The notes under the pieces: generated by a model | What the model saw: only the letters and a program-made list of their open reading frames with translations | Databases searched by the model: none | What the model was told of the DNA's origin: nothing | Virus record (IMG/VR): IMGVR_UViG_3300035135_002933 | Length of the DNA: 64,000 nt | Reading direction: 5' to 3' (one strand) | From: a virus | Shown: positions 26,959 to 40,491 of the stretch, one piece after another | How the letters are laid out: each line of letters begins with the position of its first letter | Numbering within the stretch: position 1 is the first letter of the stretch | Program-made: the position numbers and the translations under genes

Positions 26959-29895
26959 CTACTTTGCGTCGGCCCAGGTAGCACCATATGACGCTTCCGC
27001 GATAATAGGCACCTTGTGGCACACAACGCCTCCCGCAGCCTCCATCAATGCCGTAAGTAGAGCAGCCCACTGCTCAACCACAGCTTCTCTCACCTCGAGA
27101 ACGATCTCGTCGTGCACCATGGCGATCAAGAACGCCTCATCCACCGGTGCACCCACGATCTTTTGCCAGATCATAGCCAACGCGATTTTGGCAATATCTC
27201 CTGCCGTGCCTTGTACCTGCGTGTTGATCCGTGTCGTGAATTTGTCATTGAATCCGATTAGCCGCCTGCGGCGCCCATATCGCGTAAACACACAACGTGT
27301 GGTCTTGTTACCTTCCTGTGTCTGCCACGCATACAGCTCAGGGTACGCTTCACGGAACCCTTTAACGAGCTCGGTAGCTTCATCAAGCTCCATATCTACA
27401 CCGTACTGAGCAACAGCTTGCTTGCGTAATGTAGCTGCTCCTGCCCCATATAGGAGCCCAAAGTTACACAATTTGGCCGAAGTTCGCTCACTTTTTGTAA
27501 TCGTAGCCGCATCCTTACCAGTAATCAAAGCCGCAGTCTCCGTGTGCAGATCTCGTCCCGCCTTATACGCCTCCAACATGCGCGACTCTCCCGAGAGCTC
27601 AGCTGCCACCCGCAGTTCCACCTGCGAGAAGTCCGCCACAACGAGCGCATAACCCCCCCGAGCCCGGAATAGCTGCCTGAACTCCGCTTCACGAGGCACT
27701 TGCTGAAGGTTCGGACCAGAGCAGTTGTGCACACAAAGCTCTTCGGCGATAAAGTTATGCGTATCCTCGATCTCTAAATCGTACACTTCGGCTTCGCCGG
27801 CAGGCATAACCAGTAAAACGCGGTGATTAGTACGTAATATACCGTAAGCTAGCATTAAATCATTTAGCTTACGTGTACCTATACCTAAAAGCTTAGCCGT
27901 ATGCTCTATAGTACGTCCTTCACTATAAGCTAGTTCGATCGCACGTTTGTTTAAGTAAATACCATTAGCACTGTAGCGACGCGTGAGTGCCTTAAGATCT
28001 AAGCCAGCTAGTTTACACTTGCGTTTGTACACGTCGAAATCCATTGGTATGTACGTTAAGCGTCCCCCAGCTTCAGCTAACCAGCGGAGAAGTGTAAACT
28101 TAGATACGTGCTTCCACTGTGCGTTGTCGGCTCCTATGAACTTACCCGTACGAGCAGCGGCACTCTTACGGATCGACTCTTCGGTAAATAACCAGTTCGG
28201 ACGCCTAGATGCCGCGTGATGCCGCAAATGCTCAATCTGTGGCATAACCTCAAGATTAGTTAAGCAGTTATTAGTTTTGTCGTGATCTTTGTGATGAATA
28301 TGCCACTCGTACCCCGGCTTACCGAAATATGATTCTTTAATAATAATAAGCTGCTCTGTACTAGAGCCATAGTTACGCCAGTAAAGCCGAGGACGCTCAC
28401 TTTTGGTCGAACGGCGTAGATGCCAGATCTGCTCATTCGGCAACAATGACTGAGCTTCTACCCACCCACGGTCTGTTCTAATGCGGTGATCGGGTGTGCA
28501 GATCAAAGAACCGTACTGAGGGTCTTGATGGCCTTTAGCTTCCCAATCAACGCAGACTACGGGGCGTTTACCGTTACACCACTTATTGACCACGCGTTTA
28601 ATAACAGGTGCACCATTGGCATCTAGAGAATAAACGTAGTCACCCACCTTCACGTTTTCTATAGCTATAGCACCATTAGGCGCGAGAATTCGCTGCCCTT
28701 TGGCTATACAGCTGAGCCGCCCAGTCTCTGTGCCCATCTGCCTGTAGTTCGCATGAATCCTCCCATCCGGCCCTAACGAATCCAGCAGCTTCTCGATATG
28801 TGACACCCGCGTGACCGCATTCTTCCACTCCAAATACAGCGCCACGAGCTCGTACTCGTTCTTCAGAAACGCCAGCAAGTTCTGGTCCAGACTCGGTAAC
28901 CCCTTCTCGTTCGGGGACAACAGAATCCCTGCCTGCTCAAACCGCTCCGCCATCTGCTGCGGCGAGCGCGGATTGAACCCCTTGTATCGCTTGGTGCCTA
29001 GCCGAATCGAGCCCGAGTCCTTCTCCCGTGTGTTCACCGTCCCATCTGGGTCTCGCGGCAACCACACCCCTCGATCATCCGGGTGCTCCTGTTTGATCGC
29101 CTGATCCAGCTCCTCAAGGAAGCGCGTCTTAAGCGTCTCAGCATGGTCGTGCAATGAGACCTGCAGCTTCGCCGCAGCTACTGCGTCAAACCCAAACCCG
29201 TTCCACTGCATCCGCGCGATGGGCCGCAACGCGTTCATCTCGAGATCGAACACGTCCAACAACGTCACCGAGCGCGTGAGCGCCTCCCCACGCAGCGCCT
29301 CCATAAGCAGCGGCGCCAGCCTCGGAAGGCACACCGCGTCCCGCGCGGCGTACTGCACCATCTCCGGCGTGATCTCACCTGCCCAGTTCGCCTTCTGCAG
29401 CTCCTTAGGCATCGGCACCTTGAGCACCCGGTTCACGATGCTCCCGAGGTCGTTCTTGGCCCCTGTGCCATTGTTGATCACCTTGGCGGCGATCATCGTG
29501 TCGAAGATCGACCCCCCGAGCTCGAGGCCCTCCCCTTTGAGGAAGTTGAGGTCGAATGCTGCGTTCTGCAGCACCTTCTTACGCCGGCCCTCCAGCAGAG
29601 CGCGCAGCTGCATGAGCCCAGGAGCCTCCCACGGCACCTGCCGCACACCCTCGGTGCGCCACCCGTCCAGGTCCACAATCAAGGCGTAGTCGCGAACCGC
29701 GACTTGAATGAGACGCACCTGATTCACCAATGGATCGAGGCCGGTGGTCTCTGTATCCACCCCCAGGGGGCACTCGCTCTCAGCGAGCTCGGCCACGCGC
29801 CGCTTCAGTAACGAGCTCGACTGCGGACCTTGTATGAAGTCGAAATCAACATCTTCTAAAGCTTTTTGGTGGGCGAGTGTGGCATCCGAAGGCAT
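26959..29895 (-). CDS. polA: family A DNA polymerase (3'-5' exo + pol) interrupted by an intein
   Basis: GVDTETTG exo I, QNAAFDLNFL exo II, YAARD exo III; ADFSQVELR motif A, AKLCNFGLLYG motif B, VHDEIV motif C. Confidence 0.95.
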   Translation of the reverse strand: MPSDATLAHQKALEDVDFDFIQGPQSSSLLKRRVAELAESECPLGVDTETTGLDPLVNQVRLIQVAVRDYALIVDLDGWRTEGVRQVPWEAPGLMQLRALLEGRRKKVLQNAAFDLNFLKGEGLELGGSIFDTMIAAKVINNGTGAKNDLGSIVNRVLKVPMPKELQKANWAGEITPEMVQYAARDAVCLPRLAPLLMEALRGEALTRSVTLLDVFDLEMNALRPIARMQWNGFGFDAVAAAKLQVSLHDHAETLKTRFLEELDQAIKQEHPDDRGVWLPRDPDGTVNTREKDSGSIRLGTKRYKGFNPRSPQQMAERFEQAGILLSPNEKGLPSLDQNLLAFLKNEYELVALYLEWKNAVTRVSHIEKLLDSLGPDGRIHANYRQMGTETGRLSCIAKGQRILAPNGAIAIENVKVGDYVYSLDANGAPVIKRVVNKWCNGKRPVVCVDWEAKGHQDPQYGSLICTPDHRIRTDRGWVEAQSLLPNEQIWHLRRSTKSERPRLYWRNYGSSTEQLIIIKESYFGKPGYEWHIHHKDHDKTNNCLTNLEVMPQIEHLRHHAASRRPNWLFTEESIRKSAAARTGKFIGADNAQWKHVSKFTLLRWLAEAGGRLTYIPMDFDVYKRKCKLAGLDLKALTRRYSANGIYLNKRAIELAYSEGRTIEHTAKLLGIGTRKLNDLMLAYGILRTNHRVLLVMPAGEAEVYDLEIEDTHNFIAEELCVHNCSGPNLQQVPREAEFRQLFRARGGYALVVADFSQVELRVAAELSGESRMLEAYKAGRDLHTETAALITGKDAATITKSERTSAKLCNFGLLYGAGAATLRKQAVAQYGVDMELDEATELVKGFREAYPELYAWQTQEGNKTTRCVFTRYGRRRRLIGFNDKFTTRINTQVQGTAGDIAKIALAMIWQKIVGAPVDEAFLIAMVHDEIVLEVREAVVEQWAALLTALMEAAGGVVCHKVPIIAEASYGATWADAK
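27724..28710 (-). mobile_element. 329 aa intein with an HNH endonuclease
   Basis: TGRLS|CIAKGQRI...VYDLEIEDTHNFIAEELCVHN|CSGPNLQQ; internal HHKDHDKTNNCLTNL; AT-richer than the exteins. Confidence 0.93.
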
Positions 29896-32965: not shown

Positions 32966-33080
32966 ACCGTACCCAGCGCGGTGGGGCCTAGCAAGAAATG
33001 CAAGCGAGTCTCAGGAGACTCACGGTTTGCTGCGTAAACCCTCGCAAAGGGTTGACAAGCTCTCGCCTACCCCCTACGGT
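32966..33080. promoter_or_regulatory. divergent sigma-70-like promoters with a central GAGWCTCA operator pair
   Basis: Leftward TTGCTA(32994-32989)-17-TACGGT; rightward TTGACA(33052-57)-17-TACGGT(33075-80); GAGTCTCA/GAGACTCA at 33006-33023. Confidence 0.7.
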
Positions 33081-35846: not shown

Positions 35847-36737
35847 ATGTCGGACATCATCTCCCAGTACCTCAACGACATTGCTCGGTATCCCATCCTT
35901 TCCCGGGAAGCACAGCTGCGGCATGCCTACCGCATCCAGGCCTGGTACAACTACACCCCACCCGGCGCCACCGAGCCCGATCGCACCCAGGCCCCCGAGC
36001 GCGTCGCTCGCCTCGGCAAACGCTCCCTCGACATCATGGTGCGCACCAACCTGCGCCTCGTGGTGCACCTGGCCAAGCGCTACCAGAACCGCGGCCTCGA
36101 GCTGAGCGACCTCATCCAGGAGGGTTCCCTCGGACTGATCCGCGGCATCGAGCTCTTCGATCCCACCCGCGGCTACGCCTTCAGCACGTACTCGTACTGG
36201 TGGATCCGCCAGTCGATCTGCCGGGCGATCTACAACACGGCCCGCACAATCCGGCTGCCGGTGAACGTGCAGGACACCTCCACGAAAGTTCGCCGCTTCA
36301 CCCAGCAGTTCCTGGCCGATCACAACCGCAATCCGACCCTCCCTGAGATCGCAGCCGAGTTCGATCTCACCCTCGAGCGGCTCAACGACATCCTCAGCAG
36401 TTGCGTGCTCACGGACTGTCTGTCAATGGATAGCCTGTGCCAGCTCACGGACACCTCGCTCTCGGAGATCCTCACGACATCCAACCCCACCAGCTCCGAA
36501 TCTCCCGAGCTCGCCACCCTCGCCACCGAGCGCGATGACCTCCTGCAAAAAGCACTCACACAGCTCGATGAACGCGAGCGCCGGGTGATCACCGTCCTGC
36601 ATTTCGAGGGCGGCAACACCACACAGCTGGCCTCCGAGTTCGATGTATCGCGCCACACCGTGTCAACGCTGCACAAGAAAGCGCTCAATAAACTGCGGCG
36701 CAGCCTTGTGTACAGCTGGGAAGCATTTGAGGGGTGA
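35847..36737 (+). CDS. RNA polymerase sigma-70 family factor (group 2/RpoD-like)
   Basis: Region 1.2 QYLNDIARYPIL; region 2 NLRLVVHLAKRYQNRG..DLIQEG..FDPTRGYAFSTYSYWWIRQ; regions 3 and 4 present. Confidence 0.93.
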   Translation: MSDIISQYLNDIARYPILSREAQLRHAYRIQAWYNYTPPGATEPDRTQAPERVARLGKRSLDIMVRTNLRLVVHLAKRYQNRGLELSDLIQEGSLGLIRGIELFDPTRGYAFSTYSYWWIRQSICRAIYNTARTIRLPVNVQDTSTKVRRFTQQFLADHNRNPTLPEIAAEFDLTLERLNDILSSCVLTDCLSMDSLCQLTDTSLSEILTTSNPTSSESPELATLATERDDLLQKALTQLDERERRVITVLHFEGGNTTQLASEFDVSRHTVSTLHKKALNKLRRSLVYSWEAFEG

Positions 36738-36740
36738 GGC

Positions 36741-37376
36741 TTACCAGATAGGCACTTCTTCTACTTCTACACCTTCTATAGCGAAAGCTAACGTACCCGA
36801 TTGTTTACAGATTCGCACACGTTGATACAGTGTAAAGTAATTTAGATCTAGTTCGGTGCACAAGCTACGCATATTGTACAGTGCGCCGTTGTAACGATAC
36901 ATAGTATGAGTAACGTTACCTATAACAGTTTCTTTTTCTTTTAATGCTTTTGATGTAGCTTGCTTTAAGCTTGCGCTAATTTTAGGTTTACTAGACTTTC
37001 TAGGTTTAGCTACTCCTTTTTCGTCGCGTCCGTTATCATCTGCCCATCCCAGAATTAAGTCTCCTGTATCGGTGTGCCTTACGACCATATGACCTGGGTC
37101 CTGCCCGTACTTTAAGTAGTAAACAATACGATGCGTATAGAAAAGTCCATGATCATACACAGTTACTAACCATTTAGCTCCAGACTTACTACCTGCGGGT
37201 TTCCCAGCTTTGGCCACACCTCTGTTCACTTTCCACACGAGACCGGAAGGTGAGCTGTCAGATACCTCGAACAGCTCCCTAACCACCGGGGGGATAGGAC
37301 GTGGACTGCCCTGTGCGTTGAGGGCGTAGGGAACATCCGTCAGTGGCAGGCACAGTTGGTAGGTCTGTGAGGGCAT
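36741..37376 (-). CDS. HNH homing-endonuclease-like protein, possibly degenerate
   Basis: SGLVWK...THRIVYYLKYG..PGHMVVRH; shortened HNH loop; C-terminal YNG..LCTELDLNYFTLYQR; AT-rich. Confidence 0.6.
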   Translation of the reverse strand: MPSQTYQLCLPLTDVPYALNAQGSPRPIPPVVRELFEVSDSSPSGLVWKVNRGVAKAGKPAGSKSGAKWLVTVYDHGLFYTHRIVYYLKYGQDPGHMVVRHTDTGDLILGWADDNGRDEKGVAKPRKSSKPKISASLKQATSKALKEKETVIGNVTHTMYRYNGALYNMRSLCTELDLNYFTLYQRVRICKQSGTLAFAIEGVEVEEVPIW

Positions 37377-37472
37377 CGGAGGCTGTCGGAATCTCCTCAA
37401 TATACCCCCTAGTAAATTTCACATATATTAAAAAATCTCTAGCCAGTAATATGTCGCGCTAGATGTACCCCC

Positions 37473-37551
37473 GTCTCACCGCGACGCAAGGCGAGACTCA
37501 GGGTGAGACTCACTGAGACTCACAGCCCTGCAATGAGACTCAAGAGACTCA
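37473..37551. repeat. cluster of GAGACTCA octamers
   Basis: Five direct copies starting 37493, 37505, 37515, 37535, 37544, plus inverted GTCTCA at 37473. Confidence 0.9.
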
Positions 37552-37561
37552 GCCAAGACGC

Positions 37562-37590
37562 TTGACCTTTGCGCCAGGCTGTGCCAGACT
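37562..37590 (+). promoter_or_regulatory. candidate promoter P1
   Basis: TTGACC-17-CAGACT preceded by TG. Confidence 0.45.
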
Positions 37591-37657
37591 GAGCTCACGC
37601 GCGCACATCATGCGCGTTTCCGTCTTGCGTGGCAACCTGCCGACTCGTGCGGCTGGC

Positions 37658-37688
37658 TTGACGCAATCCGCGGAACCCGTGATAGGGT
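37658..37688 (+). promoter_or_regulatory. candidate promoter P2
   Basis: TTGACG-19-TAGGGT with extended TG; same layout as P3. Confidence 0.55.
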
Positions 37689-37693
37689 TGGTT

Positions 37694-37836
37694 CACAACC
37701 GAAGGGCCCCGGGGAGCGCTGCTCCCGCGGACGGCGCTCCGGTTGTGCCTGCACCTGGACAACCGAGCACCTTTGCCCTTACGGGCTGCGGCTTTGCTGC
37801 GCCCGTAGGTATGGGACGCGGCCATCGCGTGATGGC
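37694..37836 (+). ncRNA. candidate structured RNA segment 1 (hairpin, boxA-like motif, hairpins)
   Basis: CACAACCG/CGGTTGTG, TACGGGC/GCCCGTA, GCCATC/GATGGC stems; GCACCTGGACAACCGA at 37751. Confidence 0.45.
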
Positions 37837-37921
37837 GCAACTGAGCCGATGGCAGGCTGTGACGTTGCGGTTTCCCCCGGACCCTTTATGGGAATTCCGG
37901 AACGATCGAACCCCTAGGGGG

Positions 37922-37952
37922 TTGACAGATCGAGCGGCAGGCGTGCTAGGGT
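37922..37952 (+). promoter_or_regulatory. candidate promoter P3
   Basis: TTGACA-19-TAGGGT with extended TG. Confidence 0.6.
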
Positions 37953-37959
37953 CAGGGCA

Positions 37960-38154
37960 TGCCCGGAGCGATCCGGGCAGAACCTAGGAAACCGAATAGG
38001 ACTAGTGGCGCGGGCAGAGCCCGGCCAGCCGGCGCGGCCGATGGTAGGCGTGGTGTGACAGACCACGCCGAAACGTAGGCGATTCGTGTCAGGTGAACCG
38101 TGCGGATGGCACAAGGCAGAGATGCTGCGTGCGTGGATGCTCCCTAGTCCTTTT
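37960..38154 (+). ncRNA. candidate structured RNA segment 2 (about 195 nt)
   Basis: TGCCCGGA-GCGA-TCCGGGCA hairpin; boxA-like 37980-95; GGACTAG/CTAGTCC long-range stem; GGCGTGGT/ACCACGCC; ends in TTTT. Confidence 0.55.
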
Positions 38155-38161
38155 GGTAGTT

Positions 38162-38759
38162 GCGCAGTTGCAATAGGACTGCGCGAACCTTGATAACAGA
38201 ATAGTTGTGAGATTTGCCCTCTTCATGCCAGCTAACTTGCTCTGGTTGTAGGAAGCCCGCGAGGGGCTGCTGTAGGCATTCTGTGCCTACATTGCGGCGG
38301 TTCGACGTCCTATGTTTGCAATGGCAAATCTTCTCTATTCCGCACGCATAGTGCGCATAGCTTCCGCGTATAGGATTACTGCCGGTAAGGTTGCCGGGTG
38401 TGACAGTATCCCTATTCGTATTGCGTAAGACGTGATCTAACGGGCCATGCTCGCCGAATTAAGTAGGCCTTGGCTATACTTTATCGTTCGATAACTGTAG
38501 GGACTTCAGGTGCCCTACTACGACGGCAAGGTATAGCCAAGACGAAGTTAAGCACCCTGTAATCACGTTCTAACTGTGGCCTTTCTCCTGGGTTACTCAT
38601 ACCCGGCAGACGCGCGGCGCCTCCCGCGCGTTAGAAGTTTGCTCAAGGCTTTGCGCCTGGTCTGTATGGGATAGTGCTTCGAGCACTACATTCAGACCCG
38701 CGTACAAACCATCTCCCCCAAACATTCCCCCAGGCGCACTGCGTCCGGGGGTTGTTTGG
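38162..38759 (+). ncRNA. candidate large ornate ncRNA (about 600 nt)
   Basis: More than 10 nested perfect 6-11 bp stems and possible pseudoknots (see findings); no credible ORF. Confidence 0.65.
38185..38200 (+). promoter_or_regulatory. rrn-type boxA-like antitermination motif after a boxB-like hairpin
   Basis: GCGCAGT/ACTGCGC hairpin followed by GAACCTTGATAACAGA; sister copies at 37751 and 37980. Confidence 0.65.
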
Positions 38760-38800
38760 CTGAGGTGCTTTGCATCTCGTGTCCTCAAGCTGTAACCAGC

Positions 38801-39019
38801 ATGCGTTTCAATTCCCGCCGGGCTGATGTCCCTGGCTACCTCGAGTTCCTCTGGGTTGAGAAAGATCTCCCCGAGGGCGTCAACCCCCAGGCCATCGCCC
38901 TCATCACCGACACCGCCGACGGCCGTTTCCACGGCATGTACGGCCTGGTCACTGTGGCCGGCCCCACCGTTTCCGCAGTCAAGGCAGAGCTCTGCCGTCT
39001 GATCGAGGCCGGCCAATGA
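38801..39019 (+). CDS. hypothetical early protein
   Basis: ATG 38801, GC3-biased; ATGA-coupled to the next gene. Confidence 0.55.
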   Translation: MRFNSRRADVPGYLEFLWVEKDLPEGVNPQAIALITDTADGRFHGMYGLVTVAGPTVSAVKAELCRLIEAGQ

Positions 39020-39378
39020 GCTACTCCCACCGCAGTGCCTGGCACGCCTTCCTTGTGACGGAAGGTCACGGCCCCGGCACCCGTCTCAGCAACGACTTGC
39101 TGGACCGCATCCGTCAGGACTGGTATGCCTTCCGCGAACAGGCGGAAGCCATGGGCTTCGATGCCGTAGAGCACCGTGCCACAACCATCGACTCATCCGA
39201 GGGCGATGAGTGGGACTATGCCGCCCATGACTTCATCCTCACCCGGAACCACCATGGTGCCGGCTTCTGGGATGGCGACTGGCACGCCCCCTGGGGCGAC
39301 CGCCTGACTGCGTTAGCCCACACCTTCCCCCAACTTGAGAGCTATCTCGATGACGACGACATCCTCTGCCTCTACTGA
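39016..39378 (+). CDS. conserved phage hypothetical protein
   Basis: HDFILTRNHHGAGFWDGDW motif. Confidence 0.6.
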   Translation: MSYSHRSAWHAFLVTEGHGPGTRLSNDLLDRIRQDWYAFREQAEAMGFDAVEHRATTIDSSEGDEWDYAAHDFILTRNHHGAGFWDGDWHAPWGDRLTALAHTFPQLESYLDDDDILCLY

Positions 39379-39527
39379 CGCCCGCTACGCCAAATCCCTC
39401 GAAGTCTGGCGCCTGCTGTTCGAAGCCGAACAGCTCATCATCGGCGACGCTGACTACAGCGCGGCCGCACCGCACCTGTCCAATGTGCTGGACTTCGTTT
39501 CTACACTCCAAACCCGTCTCGAATCCC

Positions 39528-39686
39528 ATGAGTAAAGAACAACGCCGCGTCGACACGATCAACCGCCTACTTCCCCGCCTATCCGGTGATGCAGCGGAGC
39601 GCCTGCTCCGAGAGCGGCGCACCTTACTGCGGTTGATCCACAACATCCCGCAGCAGATACAGCTGCCCCTTGATTGGCAGCCCTGA
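39528..39686 (+). CDS. hypothetical protein
   Basis: MSKEQRRVDTINRLL... Confidence 0.4.
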   Translation: MSKEQRRVDTINRLLPRLSGDAAERLLRERRTLLRLIHNIPQQIQLPLDWQP

Positions 39687-39765
39687 TGTTCCCCCAGAGC
39701 CCTTCCCTTCTATGGGTGGGCTCTCTGGGCGCATCGCGCCTTCTGTTCTCTAGCTGTGATTCAGC

Positions 39766-40491
39766 ATGCGTAACAAAGCTCCGCGCGGCTTCGTCGTCGA
39801 CCGCGGCATCTCGCCCATCGACGGGCAACCGTATGTCGCCATCGCGACACTCCGCAGCACCAACGCCAAGACCGGCGACATGGTGCAGGTGTTCATCCTG
39901 CGGCCCGACATCGCGCCGCTCGCCGCCATCGTTTCCGGCGATGACCGCACGATCTGCGGCGACTGCCCCCACCGCCGCCGCTGGGACGCCGCACTGCAGC
40001 GCTACGTCCGCAGCTGCTACGTCGACGTCGGCAAGTCCGTCGGCGCAGTCTGGCGCGCTTTCCAGCGGGGTAGCTACCCCGAGTACGACGCTCACACTCA
40101 CGCCCGCTACATCCGCGGCCGTCGCATCCGCTGGGGCGCCTACGGCGATCCTGCGATCCTCCACGAGGCCGTCGTGCGTGACCTCACCGCCGTGGCTGAC
40201 GGCCACACCGGCTACACCCACCAGTGGCGGCACGGCTTCGCCGCGTGGGCACGCGGGTTCTTCCAGGCATCGTGCGACAGCTTCGCCGACTACCTCGCCG
40301 CCTCCGAGAGCGGCTGGCGCACCTTCGCCGTCGTCCCGCAGGGCGCCGCACCGTACGCCGGCAAGCTCTGCCCCGCCACGGCGGAGGGTTCTGAGGCCAC
40401 CTGCCTCACCTGCCGCCTCTGCGACGGTGCCAAGCAAGACGTACACGTCGTCGCCCACGGCATCGGTGCCGCCTACGTGGAGGCCGCCTGA
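39766..40491 (+). CDS. Gp88-like Cys-rich (radical-SAM-related) protein
   Basis: STNAKTG, CGDCPH..CYV, RWGAYGD, GYTHQW, C-terminal CP..TCLTCRLC. Confidence 0.7.
   Translation: MRNKAPRGFVVDRGISPIDGQPYVAIATLRSTNAKTGDMVQVFILRPDIAPLAAIVSGDDRTICGDCPHRRRWDAALQRYVRSCYVDVGKSVGAVWRAFQRGSYPEYDAHTHARYIRGRRIRWGAYGDPAILHEAVVRDLTAVADGHTGYTHQWRHGFAAWARGFFQASCDSFADYLAASESGWRTFAVVPQGAAPYAGKLCPATAEGSEATCLTCRLCDGAKQDVHVVAHGIGAAYVEAA

Follow-up and report, generated by a model that had tools for sequence, protein, structure and literature searches.

The locus examined here raises the question of what kind of element fills positions 38162-38759 of a viral DNA, a stretch that falls within a 1.4-kb gap (37400-38800) containing no ORFs. 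The window, by which we mean the entire 64,000-nt stretch that was analyzed, comprises most of a tailed phage genome of ~66 kb. Upstream of the gap are a phage sigma-70-family gene (35847-36737) and, on the minus strand, an HNH homing-endonuclease gene of low GC content (~40%; 36741-37400), and downstream are small rightward early genes, the first of which has its ATG at 38802. The GC content is ~52% at the flagged region versus 60-70% in its surroundings. The nearest matches to the sigma factor are in the Synechococcus siphophages S-CBS1 and S-CBS3, those to the large terminase are in Cylindrospermopsis and Nodularia phages, and DNA of the phage was found in metagenomes of wetland, lagoon, estuary, pond, and freshwater origin. 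The original prediction had described the stretch as a candidate ornate ncRNA of about 600 nt, belonging either to a known class such as GOLLD or ROOL or to a new one.

The folding claims of that prediction hold. All nine of the stems it listed are perfect reverse complements at their coordinates, and perfect inverted repeats of 8 nt with a span of up to 160 nt number 10 in the 598-nt stretch, compared to a mean of 1.1 and a maximum of 8 in 500 shuffles. The minimum free energy of the + strand is -249.7 kcal/mol (z -7.48), far from the background of the window, where 300-nt pieces over the whole 64 kb have a mean z of -0.69 and a standard deviation of 1.37. The minus strand of the stretch scores z -4.87. 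Excess structure also extends past the flagged edges: five consecutive 300-nt pieces spanning 37501-39000 have z values between -2 and -5.9, and positions 37958-38780 fold with z -6.86.

The statement that there is no credible ORF is likewise borne out. That the region encodes one or more small proteins is scarcely credible; the five + strand ORFs of 30-45 aa would be the candidates, the longest having 45 aa, but none of them is kept in homologues, which break them by frame-breaking indels, lost starts, and early stops, and conservation tracks helices rather than codons. The small ORFs were rejected on this ground.

Searches against known RNAs gave no match to an established class. A cmscan search of the whole window against Rfam at gathering thresholds returned zero hits, and a permissive scan of 37300-39100 returned only four hits at chance level (E 2-9). 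Specifically, the Rfam models of GOLLD, ROOL, HEARO, OLE, raiA, group I/II introns, RNase P, 6S, and tmRNA did not match, and ARAGORN found neither a tRNA nor a tmRNA. By blastn there was no match among 50,697 deposited phage records. An exact 21-mer from an invariant core of the RNA (described below) was absent from 185,579 prokaryote genomes, which thus gave no sign of a copy in a prophage or a host. Membership in GOLLD or ROOL, whose structures have been determined by cryo-EM (PMC12286853), thus finds no covariance-model match. The cyanophage RNA resembles these two classes in being a large, intricately folded ncRNA of a kind that is often phage-borne and whose function is unknown, and differs from them in lacking any match to their models. 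GOLLD and ROOL are not known to occur with boxA modules or as early leaders. The RNA is a new structured family in cyanophages, and the prediction of a large, conserved, structured phage ncRNA ahead of the rightward early genes stands, with no Rfam match.

True homologues were collected through exact-word searches with conserved blocks, which yielded contigs L100 (equal to L103 and L104), L102/L107, L105, L106, and L108; the distant full-length copies L084 and L087 were added by covariance models. In small alignments, RNAalifold counted compensatory changes in 13 of 76, 16 of 78, and 9 of 45 pairs. With model-based alignments, which draw on a sample of 8-10 related phage contigs and lean towards structure, 24 of 76 pairs are compensatory in 37952-38210 (model R1, alignment A8) and 32 of 78 pairs change on both sides in 38160-38470, values that none of 500 shuffles reached in either case. 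About 96% of cells in these alignments are paired, and controls with slid partners gave only 0-6 compensatory pairs. Covariation among these homologous contigs is strong. Among the best-supported elements are the closing helices GAATAG/CTATTC and AGATTTGCC/GGCAAATCT, where 14 of 16 pairs are compensatory. Compensatory changes also preserve the TGTAGGCA hairpin, the hairpin at 38366-38419, and the terminal CCAAACA/TGTTTGG helix.

The same helices reveal which strand is functional. Many conserved G-U pairs occur on the + strand, and when these helices are considered on the minus strand, pairing drops by 7-12 points. This asymmetry points to a + strand RNA and argues against a DNA cruciform. An element whose inverted repeats function as DNA (for instance an origin of replication, a site for packaging, or a hot spot of recombination) would suit a locus that forms a mosaic junction between conserved blocks and adjoins both a homing-endonuclease insertion and phased repeats, but G-U pairs of the + strand correspond to C-A mismatches on its complement, and the region carries host RNA signals (boxA) and is present in RNA libraries. 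We consider this explanation very unlikely, and a DNA cruciform or origin was rejected because of the strand asymmetry. The flagged stretch is confirmed as a real, conserved, and strongly folded + strand ncRNA region.

The homologues are mosaics in which blocks of 80-100% identity (37910-38196, 38357-38436, 38455-38610, and 38701-38777) alternate with replaced or deleted hairpins or whole domains. The replaced parts are domain II (38199-38340) and the hairpins at 38610-38698, and the order of modules is constant across eight contigs. Read in the 5' to 3' direction on the + strand, the first of the recognizable parts of the gap are five phased GAGACTCA repeats (37493-37551) that lie within the left block (37466-37635) kept by all relatives. 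These copies have a phasing of ~10 bp and sit just upstream of the first promoter-like element, and single copies are also found at 33015 and 3642; a regulator encoded by the phage probably binds to these repeats.

Three promoter-like elements can be read from the sequence, although a simple consensus scan called none of them. The putative P1 (37562-37594; TTGACC, 17 nt, CAGACT) lies in the block conserved in all relatives and is followed by a hairpin at 37599-37616. The putative P2 (37658-37688) combines TTGACG with an extended -10, TGaTAGGGT, that is kept in L100. The putative P3 (37922-37952) combines TTGACA with the extended -10 GTGCTAGGGT and is kept in six homologues while the next hairpin varies; transcription from it would start near 37958. 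The conserved TTGAC and extended -10 (TGnTAnnnT), uncalled by the consensus scan, are found 40-65 nt upstream of the first and second of three boxA-like sequences (37751 and 37980). A separate promoter is lacking for the third (38185), which is located ~230 nt beyond P3.

A search with the boxA motif ACC[T/A]NG[A/G]NAA[C/A] found matches on the + strand at 37753, 37982, and 38187, which is three within 440 nt, and only once elsewhere on the + strand in 64 kb. Each of the three boxA sequences has a hairpin 0-3 nt upstream, and two of these hairpins covary extensively. The first module (37694-37766) consists of a long boxB-like hairpin (37694-37747) followed by the leader-type boxA GCACCTGGACAACCGA (37751-37766), and it is kept in L100, L106, L107, and L108. 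The second (37961-37993) has a boxB-like hairpin with a GNRA loop (37961-37978) and the boxA variant GAACCTAGGAAACC (37980-37993); the stems of this hairpin are wholly different in sequence among homologues yet always pair, and they carry loops of GCGA, GGAA, or GAGA. In the third (38160-38197), which marks the start of the flagged stretch, a covarying boxB-like hairpin (38160-38186) abuts GAACCTTGATAAC (38185-38197), a boxA of the type found in the internal transcribed spacer (ITS) of rRNA operons. Covariation of the boxA-associated hairpins includes the replacement of GCCCGGA/TCCGGGC by CCGATCC/GGGTCGG or CCAGCC/GGCTGG.

Comparison with the host indicates where these signals may come from. 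The reverse complement of a published "antitermination box A" primer for the picocyanobacterial 16S-23S spacer is GAACCTTGACAACTGCATAG (PMC9769826). Relative to the picocyanobacterial ITS boxA (GAACCTTGACAAC...), the GAACCTTGATAAC of the window matches at 11 of 12 nt (38185-38196), and L100, L107, L108, and L087 carry GAACCTTGACAA exactly, a match of 12 of 12. Furthermore, the rrn leader of Vulcanococcus limneticus contains exactly the 16-mer found at 37751-37766, and in 18 rrn loci of picocyanobacteria the leader-type motif ACCTGGACAAC precedes the spacer boxA by 2.35-2.59 kb. As in the phage, boxA in the leader and the ITS of the host comes directly 3' of a hairpin, which often has a GNRA loop. 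A sensitive blastn comparison of the RNA with 80 of 120 picocyanobacterial rrn loci recovered only the boxA 16-mer and one 19-mer at chance level, and on this basis an rRNA fragment or an antisense RNA to rrn was rejected.

Downstream of both the second and the third boxA is GAATAG, whose pairing over a long range, as the 5' side of a helix, closes domain I and domain II, respectively. Domain I (37994-38154) is closed by GAATAGGACTAG/CTAGTCCTTTT and includes a 48-nt core (38096-38143) that is invariant in seven sequences. The distant copies L084 and L087 retain the hairpin-boxA-GAATAG arrangement around a different domain I. Domain II (38199-38340) has the GAATAG/CTATTC and AGATTTGCC/GGCAAATCT closing helices and three hairpins inside, and L100, L107, and L084 have other sequence in its place. 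Like the rrn operon of the host, the phage locus proceeds from promoter(s), which in the phage are putative, to hairpin to boxA; its leader-type boxA is identical over 16 nt, its spacer-type boxA agrees at 11-12 of 12 positions, the two occur in the order of the host operon, and its boxA sequences at 37980 and 38185 each precede a long-range helix enclosing folded RNA. Unlike the operon, the phage encloses domains of 140-160 nt without similarity to rRNA, has an extra putative promoter and a third boxA, and runs into protein-coding early genes.

Farther downstream are a small hairpin (38341-38355) and a conserved hairpin module (38366-38419), common to L084, L100, L105, L106, and L108; two helices of this region (38341-38419) have seven compensatory pairs. 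Domain III (38430-38568), in which an ACGTGAT/ATCACGT closing helix surrounds CTTGGCTATAC/GTATAGCCAAG and two inner hairpins, is less well conserved and is partly deleted in L100, and a T-A to C-G change occurs at 38477/38533 among variants in RNA contigs. The next hairpin (38585-38609) is kept in all six full-length homologues, and its 7-nt loop, TACTCAT, is identical in each of them while the neighboring hairpins are variable. Two variable hairpins follow (38610-38631 and 38659-38698, together 38610-38698); they are present in L106, the second also in L015, and missing from L100 and L108. In L106 and L015, GGTCTG/CAGACC is replaced by GCCGGT/ACCGGC. A pseudoknot suggested between 38652-38659 and 38731-38738 was rejected as unsupported by homologues, since its 5' arm is absent in L100 and L108 and noncomplementary in L106 and L015.

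The 3' end of the stretch is formed by a terminator-like, GC-rich hairpin (38718-38759) with A-rich and U-rich flanking arms. Its stem has 9-10 bp with one mismatch and is followed by TTGTTTGG, and a terminator scan did not call it. The hairpin is fully paired in all 10 relatives compared, including those lacking the rest of the RNA cassette, and has three compensatory pairs. The part that follows (38762-38804) consists of a small hairpin (38762-38778) and of AGCTGTAACCAGCATG, a gene-start motif that includes the start codon (ATG, 38802) of the first early ORF. This motif, behind another strong hairpin, recurs before the ATG at 39766. Because the terminal hairpin is common to all relatives and the motif is reused at 39766, the last 100 nt are a generic gene-start unit that lies outside the ornate RNA proper.

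As for this motif in the window at large, AGCTGTRA..AGCATG has two matches (38788-38803 and 39752-39768) versus 0.01 expected. The second match ends another structured stretch (39379-39780; z -5.1), and a 300-nt piece at 39601 has the most extreme z in the window (-6.5). Together with the end of the leader, 39379-39780 suggests that a cassette of hairpin plus gene start is repeated in the early operon.

The variable 3' portion bears on the idea that the region is a string of independent regulatory hairpins, such as attenuators, RNase E/III sites, or stabilizers, that have no joint architecture or single function. The hairpins at 38610-38631 and 38659-38698 and domain II come and go among homologues, and the last 100 nt are a generic unit repeated ahead of another gene, as this idea would predict. 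Nevertheless, long-range closing helices of 6-14 bp that span 130-160 nt covary, module order is fixed in eight contigs, and the hairpin-boxA-helix unit is repeated. We judge a collection of unconnected hairpins to be unlikely.

Sequences of the region are present in RNA libraries. Words of 37922-38778 occur in 17 RNA-seq runs from at least seven studies, and in four metatranscriptomes (four studies) contigs of relatives, 85-95% identical, span approximately 37922-38778. One of these RNA contigs is 938 nt and another is 1030 nt, and several extend 55-120 nt past the 38718-38759 hairpin. Contig depth on the L100 cassette exceeds that of the flanking genes in X19 (22 vs 2-7) and X22 (86 vs 7-20) and is similar to that of the flanks in X20 and X24; assembled contigs cannot rank expression or give ends, strand, or processing, and in X20 the whole phage locus is evenly covered, so DNA carry-over is possible. 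The contigs are evidence of presence in RNA libraries and not proof of a discrete RNA.

These observations alter the boundaries originally drawn. The 5' edge was too tight, because conserved structure and promoter-like elements begin ~200-500 nt upstream, and on the 3' side 38701-38801 proves to be the element common to all relatives. Nor does a self-contained RNA of 600 nt agree with the data: the flagged stretch begins at a hairpin and host-type boxA (38160-38197) and continues domain I and upstream modules that start from ~37658, and RNA-library contigs cross the 3' hairpin towards the first gene. Given the boxA modules, domain I upstream, and the contigs that run past the hairpin, the stretch reads better as part of an antiterminated leader. 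We therefore favor, as probable but with real reservations, the interpretation that 38162-38759 is the 3' two-thirds of an untranslated early leader that resembles an rRNA operon and is antiterminated via host Nus factors, in a phage whose hosts are freshwater or estuarine picocyanobacteria. The leader would best be read as ~0.8 kb long from P3 and up to ~1.2 kb from P1. Its apparent layout, with tandem promoters, hairpins, and boxA sequences of leader type, variant, and spacer type in succession, would be that of the host rRNA operon. By analogy, the second and third boxA may run into their domain-closing helices much as processing stems close 16S and 23S rRNA.

Established functions of boxA in rrn operons and in phages, for example T7 (PMC3709561), suggest a mechanism for such a leader. 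The boxA RNAs would recruit host NusB/NusE(S10) together with NusA and NusG as they emerge, and the Nus-loaded RNA polymerase would become fast and resistant to termination. An antiterminated polymerase could then complete the long untranslated RNA, aid the formation of its long-range helices, and continue past the terminator-like hairpin (38718-38759) to transcribe the early genes. The data show a covarying + strand structure free of ORFs, boxA sequences identical to those of the host, conservation by modules, and presence in RNA libraries; that the promoters are used, that Nus factors are recruited, that the hairpin is read through, and that the domains have roles beyond those of a leader is inferred. 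Since Rho is absent from cyanobacteria (PMC12642595), the usual reason for placing boxA on an untranslated RNA would not apply, and boxA would instead have to act on intrinsic terminators, on pausing, or on the folding of the RNA. Such a leader leaves unaccounted for both the 48-nt invariant core with 600-800 nt of ornate covarying folds and the existence of close relatives, such as L001, that lack the cassette.

The left block (37466-37635) is conserved in more than 30 related contigs, and most relatives found via the sigma factor (L001-L099) have in common with the window only the flanks 37466-37635 and 38701-39019. In L001, the DNA of the sigma gene is 87% identical, yet both the HNH gene and the RNA cassette are missing. 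The middles of cassette-less relatives are 610-860 nt long, unrelated to that of the window, and devoid of boxA, and they have z values of -1 to -3.9, near background, compared to -7.6 for the window. Because unrelated middles are found between the same conserved flanks, the locus is a swap site for alternative leaders. The middles in L001-L092 (e.g., L001:2136-2935) fall into at least four unrelated families that are ORF-poor and have promoter-like TTGAC boxes and little excess structure.

In view of what a leader leaves unexplained, an alternative is a large RNA that stands by itself and acts in trans, like GOLLD and ROOL in a broad sense, and for which boxA would serve only synthesis, as it does for rRNA and CRISPR arrays. 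Termination at 38759, or cleavage of the long closing helices by RNase III, would set such an RNA free, and it might then be a scaffold, an assembly, or a decoy to which ribosomal or Nus proteins bind. The 48-nt invariant core and the conserved loops exceed the needs of helices, folded domains swap as modules within fixed closing helices, and a terminator-like hairpin stands at the 3' end. Contig depth above that of flanking genes in two of four RNA runs and the same design in unrelated coliphages (see below) are also in keeping with this possibility. It is nonetheless doubtful in our view, as RNA contigs extend beyond the 38718-38759 hairpin and close relatives do without the cassette.

Other phage systems place an antiterminated leader in context. 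In T7, a functional boxA is found downstream of A1-A3, the early promoters used by the host polymerase (PMC3709561), and both the T7 early region and lambda nut resemble the cyanophage locus in having host-type boxA just behind early promoters for host RNA polymerase. Their sites, however, are tens of nucleotides long, and lambda also requires the N protein, whereas the cyanophage has three modules, ~800 nt of covarying structure, and a host that lacks Rho. A closer counterpart is phiEco32 (Kuravirus), which has an ORF-free early stretch of 1.9 kb with four copies of the boxA CGCTCTTTAA on the same strand as the genes; downstream of the last copy, a stretch of 833 nt folds with z -6.7. In phiEco32, too, the boxA of the phage's own host precedes a large folded RNA, so that the architecture is shared, but the phage group, the host, and the boxA sequence differ and there is no homology in sequence or structure. 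When model R1 was run on phiEco32 positions 68000-77554 with filters off, the best score was 5.2 bits, and homology between the two RNAs was rejected. The cyanophage and phiEco32 leaders look analogous and convergent. HK022 put and the Bacillus EAR element are cis-acting antiterminator RNAs of 65-120 nt that act without boxA. They are comparable as structured RNAs located just behind promoters that could make polymerase resistant to terminators.

The coliphage parallel invites a bolder proposal, which we regard as improbable: that the transcript is a "pseudo-rRNA," guarded by boxA, whose domains would be excised at long closing helices like 16S and 23S rRNA and would act in trans, for instance by soaking up ribosomal proteins, Nus proteins, or host factors, having arisen independently in the phiEco32 group of coliphages and in cyanophages. 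Were this so, giant phage RNAs made by antitermination would constitute a general class.

Our search of the literature found no report of a cyanophage with rRNA-type antitermination signals and nothing like this RNA. The virus has copied both the leader-type and the spacer-type boxA of the host rrn operon in host order, such that noncoding sequence alone indicates the host, a picocyanobacterium. The locus opens Nus-factor antitermination to experimental tests in a phylum without Rho, and, with a new family of ~0.8 kb, it enlarges the small set of large structured RNAs described in phages. When the phiEco32-type leaders are considered as well, it suggests that phages repeatedly place a large folded RNA behind host rRNA signals.

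Three further observations concern the organization of these genomes. In L105 (1-787, minus strand), a block homologous to the terminal hairpin region (38701-38777) is located upstream of the P3/domain I block, which could reflect either circular permutation of this contig or a tandem arrangement of the units. The HNH homing-endonuclease gene (36741-37460) is an insertion, as the sigma gene joins the conserved block at 37466 directly in the nearest relative, L001. Elsewhere in the window, an intein that includes an HNH endonuclease domain splits the gene for a family A DNA polymerase (26959-29895); the Pfam matches are Intein_splicing, Hint_2, and HNH_3.
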